Virus genome (UHGV): UHGV-0118719
DNA length: 18,049 bases
Direction: 5' to 3' (one strand)
Source of the DNA: a virus
The notes under the pieces were generated by a model. That model searched no databases. It saw nothing but the letters and a program-made list of their open reading frames with translations, and was not told where the DNA came from. Position numbers and translations under genes: made by a program. Positions 10,954 through 17,791 of this stretch are shown piece after piece. Positions within the stretch are counted from its first letter, which is position 1. Each line of letters opens with the position of its first letter.

Positions 10954-13470
10954 TTACCTGCGATTGGTCGCATTCCAGATAAGCCCACCGGGCTGGATTG
11001 CCCTGGCGATACCATCGTTGACAGATTTGTTAATCACCTGCTGATACGCCTTACCCAGCCTGTCTCCGTCGTTTTGCTGCTGTGCGTTACCGGAAGCATT
11101 CTCGACCGTCACCGGGGCATATACACTGACACCGAAAGGTGCTGCAGCCGGGCCTGTACCACCGCCCCCGACATACCCACCCGTGGCATACCCTTTCATC
11201 ATCCGGTAAAGATTGCCGACGCCGATCCGGCTGGTAGCCTCTTTGGTGAAAACAAATTCACCACGGTGAACGACACCTGCAGGTTCATATTTCCCGCCTG
11301 AACCGGTATAACCGCCACCTGCAAATCCCAGCGCGGTTGTCGCTGAATCCACCAGGCCTACCATCGCCTGTTTCAGCAGGATCTGTGTCAGCATGGAGAG
11401 CGTGGAGCGGGTGAAGTCAGCCCAGTCAGCCTTTCCGCGCGTCAGCATGTCAGCCATATTTTGCCCGATGCCATCAAACGCACTGGTGGCAGCCGACTTC
11501 ATCTGGCCATAAGCATCTGAAGCAGAATCAACATAATCTGCCCATGCGGATTTGGCTCCGGACTGCCAGTCGTCCCGCAGCTTATCCTGCTCGGCGTAAT
11601 ACGCCTGCAGCGCCTGCAGCTCATTCTGATAACCAGCATCGTTCTCCGAACCACCACCATTTTTCCAGCCCTGAAGAAGCTGGGCCTCTTCATTGCGACG
11701 TTGTGCTGCACGACTGCTCATACCAGCACTTTCCGCAAGGGCTCGGGTTTTCTCGCCGATCTGCGTGACGTATTTTTGGGACGTATCCTGCAGGCGATTA
11801 AGCCGCTCCTGCGCCACTATCTGATCGCCGAGCTTCGCATTCAGCTCCGCACGGGAAAGCACCTCACTTTTACTGGCCAGCAGGGATTTTTCCTCAGCAG
11901 AAAGCGTTCGGGTCTTCGCGGCCTCTTCCAGAACCGTAAAGCGGGACTGCTGACGCCACAGCTCCTGACGCTGCTGGCTGATGGTGTCATTGATGCTCTT
12001 ATGCTCCTGCAGGGTGCGCAGCTGTGTCTGTAGCTCCAGCGTCTGGGCACTGGCCGTATCGGTGGCACGGGCACCTGCGGGGGTTCTGATTGCCGGGGTC
12101 TTCTTCGGCTTTTTAAGGGTGTCTTCGTACTCTTTTTTCGCGGCAGCCAGGTTGATGTTGTAGTCAGCCTGGAGGATCCGCCCCTCTTTCAGCGCCTTGT
12201 TGAGCTCGCTCTGCCTGGCCGTGTATTTCTCCAGTGCCGTCTGCGTTTTGGCATAGTTTGCCTGTGCCTGCGCAGCATACTTCTGGCGATCCGATTCCGC
12301 AGCCGCTTCGCGCGATGCATTCTCTTCGTTCGCCCTGGCAATTCCCGCCTGCTGCTGCGCCATATCCAGCGCAAGCCTGGCCGTTTCGCGGTCATTCCAG
12401 AATCGGGCGCGAGCCTCATCATTGACATATCGGTCACCTTTACGCAGGTTCCAGATTTCATCAGCTTTTTTGAACGCGGCTTCGGCTTTTGCCACCATCT
12501 CCTGCGCGGTGTCAGGTCGGCCAATATCGAGGGCTGCATCCCACATCGACTTGAAGGCGCGCTTCAGGGAGTCCGCTGAAGACTCTATCGTCCCCATATT
12601 GTCGCGGATGGCTTTGGTCTGATCGTTGAATCCGGCTGTAGCCGCCTCGTTAGCCGCCTGCAGTGCGCCAGCCTCATCACCGGCACGCTGCAGCTGCGCC
12701 ACATGGGCAATCTGTTCTGCGGTAACGTTATGGAACTGCTGGGCCATCGCGATCAGGCCCGATGTCGGGTCAGTTGCGAGCTTGCCGTAGGCTGCAGCGA
12801 CTTTCTCCACCGGCACGCCGGAGGCATCAGTAAACCGCGCCACCGCCTGGCTCATTTCATCAAAGCGCGAGCCAGTACGCACACCTGCATTGATAAGCTC
12901 GGTCAGGGCTTCACTGGTCTGGTTGAACGTTAGCCCCGCTGCCTGTCCGTTCCGCGCCAGTGCCAGCATGCGGTCAGCTGTCAGTCCGGCTGTGTTCCCC
13001 GACAGTACCAGCGTTTTGTTGAAATCAGACAGAGTGGAAGAGCCCTGGTACCAGGCATAGAACAACGCGCCCGTTGCAACGGACAATGCACCAATGCCGA
13101 CCATCAACGGGGAAATCGTCCCCAGCAACGCCCGGAATGTCGGAATGATCCCGCCAAAGGAGTCCTTAACCTGACCGCCCTGCTGAAGCAGAATCAGCCA
13201 GGGGTTCTGCCCACCCGCCAGCTGCGTGGCCACGTCAGTAAACTGCGCCGGGAGCATACGCATCGCTGCGTTATACTGACCCACTGAAATACCGGCCTTA
13301 CGCGCGGCGTTCTCCTGGCGGCTGAAGGACTGCTGGATACGTAACGCTTCATCGTTTGCCGTATTGCCGGTCTGTTTTAATTCTTTTTTGACGTAGCTGA
13401 GCTGCTCGTTGAATTTTGTCGAGTTAACGTCAAGGTTAACGACCAGATCACCGACTGCCGTCTGAGCCAT
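10954..13470 (-). CDS. H: tail tape measure protein H
   Basis: 838-aa ORF; long blocks match remembered lambda gpH (GISVGQYNAAMRMLPAQFTDVATQLAGGQNPWLILLQQGGQVKDSFGG, YEPAGVVHRGEFVFTKEATSRIGVGNLYRMMKGYATGG); start overlaps the T stop by 23 nt. Confidence 0.92.
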   Translation of the reverse strand: MAQTAVGDLVVNLDVNSTKFNEQLSYVKKELKQTGNTANDEALRIQQSFSRQENAARKAGISVGQYNAAMRMLPAQFTDVATQLAGGQNPWLILLQQGGQVKDSFGGIIPTFRALLGTISPLMVGIGALSVATGALFYAWYQGSSTLSDFNKTLVLSGNTAGLTADRMLALARNGQAAGLTFNQTSEALTELINAGVRTGSRFDEMSQAVARFTDASGVPVEKVAAAYGKLATDPTSGLIAMAQQFHNVTAEQIAHVAQLQRAGDEAGALQAANEAATAGFNDQTKAIRDNMGTIESSADSLKRAFKSMWDAALDIGRPDTAQEMVAKAEAAFKKADEIWNLRKGDRYVNDEARARFWNDRETARLALDMAQQQAGIARANEENASREAAAESDRQKYAAQAQANYAKTQTALEKYTARQSELNKALKEGRILQADYNINLAAAKKEYEDTLKKPKKTPAIRTPAGARATDTASAQTLELQTQLRTLQEHKSINDTISQQRQELWRQQSRFTVLEEAAKTRTLSAEEKSLLASKSEVLSRAELNAKLGDQIVAQERLNRLQDTSQKYVTQIGEKTRALAESAGMSSRAAQRRNEEAQLLQGWKNGGGSENDAGYQNELQALQAYYAEQDKLRDDWQSGAKSAWADYVDSASDAYGQMKSAATSAFDGIGQNMADMLTRGKADWADFTRSTLSMLTQILLKQAMVGLVDSATTALGFAGGGYTGSGGKYEPAGVVHRGEFVFTKEATSRIGVGNLYRMMKGYATGGYVGGGGTGPAAAPFGVSVYAPVTVENASGNAQQQNDGDRLGKAYQQVINKSVNDGIARAIQPGGLIWNATNRR

Positions 13471-15379: not shown

Positions 15380-15930
15380 CGTGTCAGAATTAACCTGAGT
15401 TGGTTGGTAAGGGATGCCCGGAGCTCTTTGGGCATATCTGACTCCATGAGCTTCGGCAGTTCTTCTTTAAATGCCGTAGTTAATGGAGCTGCCAGCGGGA
15501 TGCTGACCACTTCAATGGGGTAACGAGGTTTTGAAGTCCGCCTCATGACATGCCAGCGACCATTTTTAAGTTGCTGGATAAAGCCGCCCGGAAAACGAAA
15601 TGGCCCTATGCGCAGAACGCTGTTGGCCCCTTTCTTGTCCCGTTTTCTGCGGGAAAGTCGCACGCTTGCGGTACCGAGTTTAATGGCCGGTAAATTTCCC
15701 CGGTTTACCCGGATAAGTGCACGAGGTCTATTGACCGTCGCACGCTTCACCCTGGCGCGTTGCTTTACCAGTTTTCGCGGTACGCGCGTATCTTTTGATA
15801 CGACTGCCACGCTGCGGCTGACGGCCCGGTTTGCCACGCGGTTAACGGCCTGCGCCGATGCCCGCGGAACAGCCGTTTTGCTGATGCTGTTAAGGTTTTC
15901 TATGGCCTGTTCAAGGCCTTTTATGGACAT
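15376..15930 (-). CDS. Z: minor tail protein Z (tail completion)
   Basis: 184-aa ORF; N-terminus MSIKGLEQAIENL..ISKTAVP and FIQQLKNGRWHVM.R match lambda gpZ. Confidence 0.92.
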   Translation of the reverse strand: MSIKGLEQAIENLNSISKTAVPRASAQAVNRVANRAVSRSVAVVSKDTRVPRKLVKQRARVKRATVNRPRALIRVNRGNLPAIKLGTASVRLSRRKRDKKGANSVLRIGPFRFPGGFIQQLKNGRWHVMRRTSKPRYPIEVVSIPLAAPLTTAFKEELPKLMESDMPKELRASLTNQLRLILTR

Positions 15931-15939
15931 ATGCGCTCC

Positions 15940-16293
15940 TTAACGGCGACGCGAAGATGCAGGTGGAGAGCCGTTACCCAGACAGATATGACAGGAGCCA
16001 CAGTCATCCGGACCAATACGTTCAACCCAGAATTGCCGACCGTTAATCGTCAGCGTGTCCATACGCTGCAGCTGCCTGACAGTGGCGGTTTCCACAAACA
16101 GGGTCGGGCTGGTTCCTTCAACACGAATCCCGGCACCGGCATATCCGATATTTTCTGGATCATCGAATACACCGACCAGGGTGGCACCTGACAAAGCGCC
16201 TGACATCACCTTTGCCTCTGTGCCCATCACACCACGGATAGCGCTATCAGCTCGCGACATGGCCTCGTCAAAGAGATTATCGAAATCAGCCAT
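15940..16293 (-). CDS. FII: head-tail joining protein FII
   Basis: 117-aa ORF; MADFDNLFD...VFDDPENI.YAG.G.RVEG.SP.LFV.T..VRQL.R.DTLTI....FWV.R..PDD.GSCH..LG.G.PPA..RRR matches lambda gpFII. Confidence 0.92.
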   Translation of the reverse strand: MADFDNLFDEAMSRADSAIRGVMGTEAKVMSGALSGATLVGVFDDPENIGYAGAGIRVEGTSPTLFVETATVRQLQRMDTLTINGRQFWVERIGPDDCGSCHICLGNGSPPASSRRR

Positions 16294-16303
16294 GTGGCCC
16301 CCT

Positions 16304-16720
16304 TCAGACTTCGAAAGCCAGCCCCTTTGCGATCAAGTCGTCGGCATCCTGTTCAGATACGCGGATAATCACACCAGGCTCTACGATAGATACCGGCTCG
16401 TTACGCGTGGCATGCAGAGCGTCAATATGCAGGGTGGCCAGCGTTTCTACTGATACCAGGTCACCCGTTGTGGCCGATTCCGTTTTTACTTTTGCCACGT
16501 TAGCAACATTGTTGTCGGTGCTGTCGGTGCTGTCGGTGCTGTCGGAAGCATTCTGCACGCCGTTTTCACCGTCAACTGACCCGGCATTGCCATCCAGTTC
16601 CTCTTCAAGCTCAGCAATACGCATCGTCAGTTCCTGAATGGTGCCGCTGGTACTGACCTCGCGGTTAAGCTGGGTCCCAAGTTCATTCAGGCGGGCGACC
16701 AGCTTTTCTTTTTCTGTCAT
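16304..16720 (-). CDS. FI: DNA packaging / head assembly protein FI
   Basis: ATG at 16718-16720 (MTEKEKLVARLNELGTQLNREVS...) aligns with lambda FI (MTKDELIARLRSLGEQLNRDVS...); GGAG RBS 8 nt upstream; the track ORF start at 16756 is a GTG inside the upstream hairpin and was rejected. Contains an internal (STD)n tandem repeat. Confidence 0.85.
   Translation of the reverse strand: MTEKEKLVARLNELGTQLNREVSTSGTIQELTMRIAELEEELDGNAGSVDGENGVQNASDSTDSTDSTDNNVANVAKVKTESATTGDLVSVETLATLHIDALHATRNEPVSIVEPGVIIRVSEQDADDLIAKGLAFEV
16513..16545. repeat. tandem 9-bp repeat (tgtcggtgc, 3.7 copies) inside FI, encoding DSTDSTDSTD
   Basis: Three perfect consecutive units at 16513-16521, 16522-16530 and 16531-16539, plus a partial unit at 16540-16545. 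Confidence 0.85.
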
Positions 16721-16738: not shown

Positions 16739-16756
16739 GTGGCCCGACAGGGCCAC
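16739..16756 (-). other. GC-rich stem-loop between E and FI (possible partial terminator or RNA-stability element)
   Basis: gtggccc-gaca-gggccac, 7-bp stem with 4-nt loop, between the E stop (16766-16768) and the FI RBS; followed on the minus strand by CUUUCU only. Confidence 0.4.
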
Positions 16757-16765
16757 TGGGGGAAG

Positions 16766-17791
16766 TTATGCCAGTTTGACGGAGACGAATGCGTCAGGGT
16801 CTGGCAGCAGCATCAGCGGAGCTGACTGAATCATGGTGAATTCGCGCGCCGGATCCCCCGACTGCACCCAGTTTTTCGGGTAGCGTGTCGAGGCATTGAT
16901 ACCTTCGCGCTGGGCATCAGCATCAAGAATGCAGCCATAGGTACGCAGGCCACGAGCCTGGGTATTCCCCAGCACCATTGTCAGGTCCGGCAGATAATTC
17001 TTTTTGACGTCGTTTTCGACGTACTGGCCGGAGTACACCACGATGGCCACATCGCCAAACATCCCCTTGTATGAAACAGCCATACCCAGGTCTTTCACGG
17101 CAGTTTCCAGCTCAGAGTTAGAACCACGACGCGTATCCAGCTTCTTCTCAACAGCCTTGAAGGAACGGAACAGCGCCCAGCCTTTCGGATCGAACACAAT
17201 GATGTTGACCACACCGCTGGCGTTGAGCGCGTAGGCTTCAATGTCATCGGTCGGGTCATACGTTTCTTTGTCGCGGGTTGACCATGCAGCCGCACCGGCC
17301 TGGACAATGTTGTTACCAGCGCTGCGGCCCATATCGACTTCAACAGGCTCGAACGCTTCCCCGGTCATGGTGTATTTACCGCTGAGCACCGCCGAAACAG
17401 CCTGTTTCTCTTCGACCTGAGCAATCGCCAGCTCTTCATCCTTCATGTTCTGAAGGATAATGCGGCGACGGCGATAGACCGGGTCAGCGAGATTCTGCGG
17501 ATCCTCATCCGGCAGGCGGCGGAGAGTCATCAGTGGGTTAACTTCGTGTTTCGGCTTCACATAACCCGGCGTGAATTCAGACGTGCTGCCGCCACGGGAG
17601 CGGATCACTTTGCCGGAGACAATCGGCGAGACGTAAAGCGCCATATTGACCAGGCCAGGAATTTGCGACAGGTAAACCTTCTCTGTACTGAAGGGATAGG
17701 TTTCGCGGAAAAAGATACGCAGGAAAAGCGGATCGAATTTGAATTTCTTCTCATTGACCGCCAGCAGTTGGGCAGTGGTGTAAACGGACAT
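16766..17791 (-). CDS. E: major capsid protein E
   Basis: 341-aa ORF, the same length as lambda gpE and matching it along the whole protein as I recall it (TTAQLLA.NE.KFKFDPLFLR.FFRE.YPF.TEKVYLSQIPGLVNMALYVSPIVSG..., ...REFTMIQSAPLML). Confidence 0.95.
   Translation of the reverse strand: MSVYTTAQLLAVNEKKFKFDPLFLRIFFRETYPFSTEKVYLSQIPGLVNMALYVSPIVSGKVIRSRGGSTSEFTPGYVKPKHEVNPLMTLRRLPDEDPQNLADPVYRRRRIILQNMKDEELAIAQVEEKQAVSAVLSGKYTMTGEAFEPVEVDMGRSAGNNIVQAGAAAWSTRDKETYDPTDDIEAYALNASGVVNIIVFDPKGWALFRSFKAVEKKLDTRRGSNSELETAVKDLGMAVSYKGMFGDVAIVVYSGQYVENDVKKNYLPDLTMVLGNTQARGLRTYGCILDADAQREGINASTRYPKNWVQSGDPAREFTMIQSAPLMLLPDPDAFVSVKLA

Follow-up and report, generated by a model that had tools for sequence, protein, structure and literature searches.

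A coding 9-nt tandem repeat of variable copy number in the predicted inter-domain linker of the DNA-packaging protein FI of lambdoid prophages

The FI gene of lambdoid prophages carries a short tandem array of a 9-nt unit, and the number of units differs between otherwise near-identical relatives. We consider it highly probable that this array is a coding variable-number tandem repeat (VNTR), or short minisatellite, which changes by slippage within a length-tolerant, nearly neutral and disordered linker of the FI protein. The array was studied in an 18,049-nt stretch of DNA, referred to throughout as the window, which is a mosaic lambdoid prophage of E. coli. The units stand head to tail and are near-perfect, alleles differ from one another by whole units, and alleles of different length are found on identical haplotypes. 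Slippage would be the molecular mechanism behind these differences, and unit number itself would be nearly neutral.

The array was located in the window by TRF and by direct reading of the raw letters, and the two agree. TRF reports a single array at this site, with 3.7 copies, 100% matches and the plus-strand unit TGTCGGTGC. On the coding strand the unit is GACAGCACC, encoding Asp-Ser-Thr, and is present in three full copies with a partial unit at each end. Read in the FI frame (TCC, then GAC AGC ACC three times, then GAC A), the array is made up of two nucleotides of the codon for Ser59, the three units in codons 60–68 (16517–16543), and a final GAC plus A. It encodes D60–D69 (DSTDSTDSTD) in the translated context NAS DST DST DST D NN, and it starts 177 nt from the FI start codon, inside the coding sequence. 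The longest perfect period-9 run measures 33 nt, against 14–19 nt in 300 shuffles of the window, and a chance origin of the array is therefore excluded. An earlier note on this DNA had described a perfect 9-bp repeat encoding (STD)n within FI, and both the TRF result and the translation agree with that description. Coordinates of the array, the gene and its surroundings are given in Table 1.

The same note had named the repeat-bearing gene as FI, and the assignment holds. The gene product matches the Pfam family PF14000 (Packaging_FI) over the full profile (positions 1–131 of 131; E=3e-51, 173.6 bits against a cut-off of 27), matches the PDB entry 2LSM, and is 44% identical to lambda FI by pairwise alignment. 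Identical RefSeq copies of the window protein are annotated as DNA-packaging protein FI. The gene stands between the major capsid gene E and FII, an arrangement that is also seen in the annotation of relatives. E, FI, FII, Z and U all lie on the minus strand, in the lambda head-tail gene order. Translation from the ATG at 16720, which has a GGAG upstream, gives a 138-aa protein that begins MTEKEKL, as do all homologues. A GTG at 16756 was rejected as the start because it is a mechanical extension of the open reading frame, whereas the ATG gives the homologue-like beginning. The closest matches to the window show 97.5% identity across 77% of its length, and the collection searched gave no exact match.

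Table 1. Features of the FI region, in window coordinates.
Feature	Coordinates	Strand	Basis
FII head-tail joining protein gene, downstream neighbour of FI	15940..16293	-	PF05354, E=2e-15; annotation of relatives
FI gene (DNA-packaging chaperone), 138 codons plus stop	16304..16720	-	PF14000; identity to lambda FI; RefSeq annotation
FI C-terminal domain, residues 86-138	16307..16465	-	2LSM homology; AF2 pLDDT ~85
Predicted disordered acidic/polar linker, residues 47-85, holding the repeat (residues 60-69)	16466..16582	-	AF2 pLDDT <50
Perfect period-9 tandem array	16513..16545	-	TRF; direct reading; translation; shuffle control
FI N-terminal helical domain, residues 1-45 (helices 3-17 and 28-45)	16586..16720	-	AF2 pLDDT 86-89
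GC-rich hairpin GTGGCCC-TGTC-GGGCCAC between E and FI	16739..16756	-	Direct reading; HK225/N15 annotation
Major capsid protein E gene, upstream neighbour of FI	16766..17791	-	PF03864, E=1e-64

We next consider where the repeat falls in the protein. An AF2 model, built from a shallow set of 26 aligned homologues (identity 80% or more), places a helical hairpin at residues 3–45 (pLDDT 86–89) and a beta-rich domain at residues 89–137 (pLDDT ~85). Between them, residues 47–85 have no secondary structure and a pLDDT below 50, and they form the single low-confidence segment of the model. A phmmer search matches FI residues 84–135 to chain A of PDB 2LSM (E=1.9e-9), the solved C-terminal domain of lambda gpFI, which binds the capsid protein gpE. 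The model and the 2LSM match together describe a two-domain plan joined by a predicted unstructured linker. Across the family alignment the N-terminal domain is nearly invariant, and the linker is the sole part that is poorly conserved and bears indels. The repeat aligns opposite the non-conserved middle of lambda FI (approximately residues 54–63), lies upstream of the part aligned to 2LSM, and occupies the centre of the low-confidence segment. Its predicted placement in the flexible inter-domain linker, which the earlier note had proposed by correspondence with lambda FI, is thus supported by both alignment and model. Disorder of the linker in window FI is likewise suggested by the prediction and by homology to lambda gpFI.

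As an assembly chaperone, FI works in the cytoplasm and does not form part of the virion. Popovic et al. 2012 is the primary paper on lambda gpFI, and the binding partner of the FI C-terminal domain in lambda is gpE, the major capsid protein E. Like window FI, lambda gpFI belongs to PF14000, is encoded between E and FII, and has two domains and a long non-conserved linker; unlike window FI, it is 132 aa long and has no tandem repeat in that linker. In the lambda model, as set out in PMC4856287 and PMC13595911, gpFI sits on the gpE lattice and helps the terminase-DNA complex to dock, and PMC10968229 cites gpFI as an example of a disordered linker at work in DNA packaging. By homology and from this literature, window FI would be expected to bind gpE and to stimulate terminase-prohead docking and packaging.

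Copy number was compared across complete genomes, named phages and viral contigs. By megablast, the FI gene is present in 34 of 5,426 complete E. coli genomes. Two of these hold a more distant, phi80-like copy, and length classes were counted in the other 32. Match lengths were 408 nt (n=2), 417 nt (n=5), 426 nt (n=20), 435 nt (n=4) and 444 nt (n=1), and sequenced representatives of these classes hold 2, 3, 4, 5 and 6 perfect GACAGCACC units, respectively. Apart from one variant, L004, the representative proteins are otherwise identical. The L004 allele (E. coli EC2001, NZ_CP133811.1; 4 units) has an FI protein ending in LIAKWLAREV rather than LIAKGLAFEV and a different FII accession, which suggests a recombination junction near the FI 3' end. 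Named phages carry 2 units (mEp237), 3 units (HK225 and phi80), 5 units (N15 gp9) and 8 units (Enterobacter phage MStein-2023a). Further alleles of 2–6 units come from IMG/VR contigs, and a search of viral contigs for long arrays returned FI genes with 7, 8 and at least 10 units. Over 44 arrays, a sample that is not de-replicated, unit counts peak at 3–4, and this peak could reflect weak selection or mutation bias.

Window FI was also rebuilt with 0–9 units, and each form was looked up by exact sequence in a collection of 15 billion proteins. The 1-, 2- and 3-unit alleles were found on 10, 169 and 630 contigs, respectively. The 0-unit allele was not found among these exact forms, and neither were forms with 4 or more units, though FI proteins with 4, 5 and 6 units occur in RefSeq (WP_016240130.1, WP_023062982.1 and WP_097719098.1, from L002, L005 and L006). 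The absence of 4-, 5- and 6-unit FI from the exact look-up is probably a gap in the collection and not biology. A scan of GTDB species representatives returned seven distant homologues only, all of them repeat-free; they serve as a control but carry no information on copy number.

The earlier note had anticipated that slippage in multiples of 9 nt would keep the reading frame and that linker length may vary among related prophages. Related prophages and phages do differ in copy number; the steps are always whole 9-nt units, and they are seen even where no other difference is present. Every allele examined is in frame and encodes full-length FI. The comparison of FI genes across relatives that the note had called for gives a variable copy number with homogeneous units, the opposite of the outcome that would have spoken against the note (an identical number in all relatives, with diverged repeats).

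Homogeneity was assessed by alignment and with a unit walker, which counted 164 units in the 44 arrays. All but five of them (159 of 164) are exactly GACAGCACC or GGCAGCACC. Where units have mutated, the mutation can appear as an adjacent pair, as with GGCAGCATC twice over in L031, and one array mixes GGC and GAC (L032). This FI site is occupied by (GST)n in a sister clade, again with duplicated mutant units, and the protein database holds whole arrays homogenised to SPD, DGT or GST units. FI of the Enterobacter type carries complex IDTDSTD/TD/TNID arrays in proteins of up to 159 aa. Unit variants in relatives are mostly non-synonymous and keep the polar and acidic character of the segment (Gly, Pro, Glu, Ile). 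The GACAGCACC unit is identical in N15, phi80 and the Enterobacter phage, though these are approximately 85% identical elsewhere; selection on the sequence or recombination of the segment could account for this. In L047, a homologue with 69% identity, a single-copy DSTD is present at the same place and is a plausible precursor of the array.

Related clades indicate which part of the linker is variable. In a repeat-free FI clade the protein is 137 aa long at 14 of 14 loci, with a DNA divergence of 4.6% (median) and 13% (maximum) over 3.4 kb. Because length is fixed where the repeat is missing, the variation belongs to the repeat and not to the linker as such. For the (GST)n clade, the full-locus alignment is dominated by mosaic flanks and is interpretable in its FI-proximal part, where the only indel run in or near FI falls at the array. 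A related subgroup of Enterobacter and E. coli FI proteins (P0098, P0103, P0104, P0109–P0111 and P0117–P0120) has complex linker arrays of the form HDSTDIDTDTNIDTDSTDIDTDSTD..., with units of 2, 4 and 7 residues and protein lengths of 137–159 aa.

The pace of change can be estimated from alleles on identical backgrounds. The 2,800-nt flanks contain no substitutions between the window (3 units), L016/L017 (4 units), L020 (5 units) and L024, which is mEp237 (2 units). L086 (4 units) and mEp237 share a 5,784-nt identical tract that runs across the array. Alleles of 2–5 units without a substitution imply at least three changes of unit number within less than one substitution per 2.8 kb. From this we infer, to an order of magnitude, that the mutation rate of the array exceeds that of a single site by a factor of approximately 1e3 to 1e4, which is in keeping with the lower values measured for E. 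coli VNTRs (PMC3777172). Within clones, array length is constant. Strain 2020S05-013 and its derivatives, in eight assemblies, all give the 426-nt match, and within each of several sets of near-identical clinical clones the FI match has one length. Such constancy points to a moderate rate, not to a hypermutable locus.

A slippage mechanism would operate as follows. During replication of prophage or phage DNA, the nascent and template strands would misalign by one or more 9-nt units, and whole GACAGCACC units would be gained or lost as a result. Unequal recombination between units would be an alternative, less probable route to the same changes. Since 9 is a multiple of 3, each change would remain in frame and would lengthen or shorten the linker by Ser-Thr-Asp triplets. 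By the lambda model, the linker would tether the helical N-terminal domain, on the DNA and terminase side, to the C-terminal domain on the gpE lattice of the capsid. A linker that tolerates many lengths would allow alleles of 1 to at least 10 units to persist as a nearly neutral polymorphism, and repeated gain and loss would keep the units alike through concerted evolution.

The genes next to FI bear on a different reading, in which linker length is selected and the repeat serves to adjust quickly how far FI extends, or what charge it carries, between the capsid lattice and the terminase-DNA complex, for example in different hosts or once head or terminase genes have been swapped by mosaic exchange. 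We regard such adaptive tuning as unlikely. The 2-, 3- and 4-unit alleles lie on head modules that differ at 3–5 of 7,219 upstream positions, counted from the genome left end (cos) to FI. By lambda gene order, this stretch presumably contains the terminase, portal and capsid genes. The capsid protein WP_000118198.1 is identical beside sequence-checked 3- and 4-unit FI alleles; one 2-unit genome has a different capsid accession beside FI. With near-identical head modules and the same capsid protein at 3 and 4 units, copy number is not tracking changes in the partners of FI. Repeat-free homologues, lambda FI included, also work with a fixed linker. Tuning, or weak selection on unit number, would nonetheless account for the independent retention of STD, GST, SPD, DGT and complex IDTDSTD/TD arrays at one site in diverged lineages, and for the absence of a 0-unit allele of the window background from the exact look-up. 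Each unit also contributes one acidic residue, and FI is proposed to act near DNA (PMC4856287).

Slightly less likely again is that the array is an evolvability device, with selection for mutability itself and reversible unit changes that tune the reach and charge of the N-terminal domain toward the terminase-DNA complex. If this were true, lambdoid phages that had acquired head or terminase modules by mosaic exchange, or had entered new hosts, could bring packaging initiation back to its optimum. That several lineages carry different repeat types at the same linker site would then represent selection for mutability and not mere tolerance.

We give a similarly low probability to recombination, homologous or unequal, between lambdoid phages that co-infect or reside in one cell as the main source of the polymorphism in place of slippage in situ. 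The identical flanks, 2.8–5.8 kb on both sides, would force the exchange point into an array of 18–54 nt, which is far below efficient RecA substrates, whereas slippage has no such length requirement. Adjacent duplicates of mutant units are also a classic product of slippage. It is nevertheless the case that lambdoid phages are highly mosaic and that the window departs from its closest relatives a few kb downstream of FI, and exchange of the segment could yield the same unit in lineages that are approximately 85% identical elsewhere. Slippage and unequal recombination give the same products and are not mutually exclusive.

It is very improbable that the copy-number differences are artefacts of sequencing or assembly, even though several draft contigs have one end within the array. 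Many complete genomes of independent origin repeat the same copy numbers (for example, the 426-nt match in 20), the independently sequenced phages N15, phi80, HK225 and mEp237 show them as well, and arrays of 18–54 nt are shorter than read lengths. The interrupted drafts are L065, which ends in the FI array, and L049, which starts in it (both IMG genome 2737471853), together with L072, L148 and L153. L072 opens (positions 1–65) in an array of at least 7 GGCAGCACC units, and in L153 at least 10 GACAGCACC units precede the contig end. Short-read assemblies seem to break at longer arrays, and copy numbers taken from draft assemblies may be truncated.

The search for long arrays covered eight loci, four of which were left out of the FI counts: L150, L152 and L154 for their non-FI context, and L147 because it lies at a locus end. 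Perfect (GGCAGCACC) arrays of 8–12 units are present in these viral contigs (L147 and L152 are one contig). No FI sequence was found beside the arrays of L147/L152, L150 and L154, and translation in the array frame is interrupted by stop codons.

Equally remote is a nucleic-acid-level signal in place of a protein linker, whether a regulatory RNA, a protein-binding site or a gene in another frame: open reading frames do cross the array on the plus strand (16407–16637, LSVLSVLSVLS) and in another minus-strand frame (16486–16617, PTAPTAPTAPT), but RNA folding at this site does not improve on shuffled sequence (z=-0.22), the sole Rfam match is to a miRNA model at chance level (19 bits against a gathering score of 69), and the mostly non-synonymous polar and acidic variants fit a disordered peptide rather than a fixed DNA motif. 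Both overlapping reading frames were rejected as mechanical, since it is the FI frame that gives the full-length family match.

The proposed VNTR in a tolerant linker can be set against known systems. The GACAGCACC array of the window recurs, at the equivalent codon position, in N15 gp9, phi80 FI, HK225 Fi and mEp237 Fi. The mEp237 protein equals window FI except for having 2 units instead of 3, and N15 and phi80 show approximately 15% nucleotide divergence from window FI outside the array. In the long-known genomes of N15 and phi80 the array is present but unremarked in annotation, and a full-text literature search, incomplete in its coverage, returned no paper that mentions the FI repeat. 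The VNTR loci used for MLVA of E. coli O157:H7 are similar in having short head-to-tail units with whole-unit insertions and deletions (PMC3777172). Those loci were picked for hypervariability (rates of 4.4e-5 to 1.8e-3 per generation), and their unit counts are often much higher, whereas the FI array has 1 to approximately 10 units, belongs to a phage gene and appears stable in clonal sets. Short alleles of the O157:H7 loci have low and roughly constant rates (PMC3777172).

Two further comparisons concern repeats within coding sequences. Staphylococcal SD repeats resemble the FI array as in-frame acidic and polar spacers whose copy number varies between strains (PMC3324548), but they are far longer and presumably matter for surface display. 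The poly-heptad of NeuO, from prophage CUS-3 of E. coli K1, is also a variable tandem repeat in a prophage coding sequence (PMC3046976); its 7-nt unit switches the frame on and off and gives phase variation, whereas the 9-nt FI unit never shifts the frame. A phase-variation switch was considered for FI and rejected, since the unit is 9 nt, every allele is in frame and gives full-length FI, and the array is internal to the coding sequence. The FI array is a new example of in-frame repeat polymorphism in a disordered linker, a phenomenon that is already well known, and reveals no new mechanism.

The natural alleles, with 1 to at least 10 STD units, indicate that lambdoid FI accommodates linker lengths at least 27 residues apart, which fits the tether model for gpFI. 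They also form a ready-made allelic series for relating linker length to packaging initiation. In practical terms, the array is a small length marker that separates otherwise identical prophages of the mEp237, HK225 and N15 type, and it is a spot where short-read assemblies break or may miscount units.

Further features of the window lie outside the array. The GC-rich hairpin between E and FI, which is separate from the repeat, is followed by CTTTCTGG and lies directly upstream of the FI ribosome-binding site. A simple terminator scan of the window did not call this hairpin, and the annotation of HK225 and N15 gives the equivalent hairpin as a rho-independent terminator. If it is a terminator, as annotated there, it would lower FI expression relative to that of the capsid protein. 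TRF also reports two other repeats in the window. The first is a perfect array of CGCCTGCAG with 2.1 copies at 11602–11620, inside the open reading frame 10954–13470 at the tape-measure position, and the second is a 21-nt unit with 2.0 copies and 80% matches at 15887–15926, at the 5' end of the Z gene.
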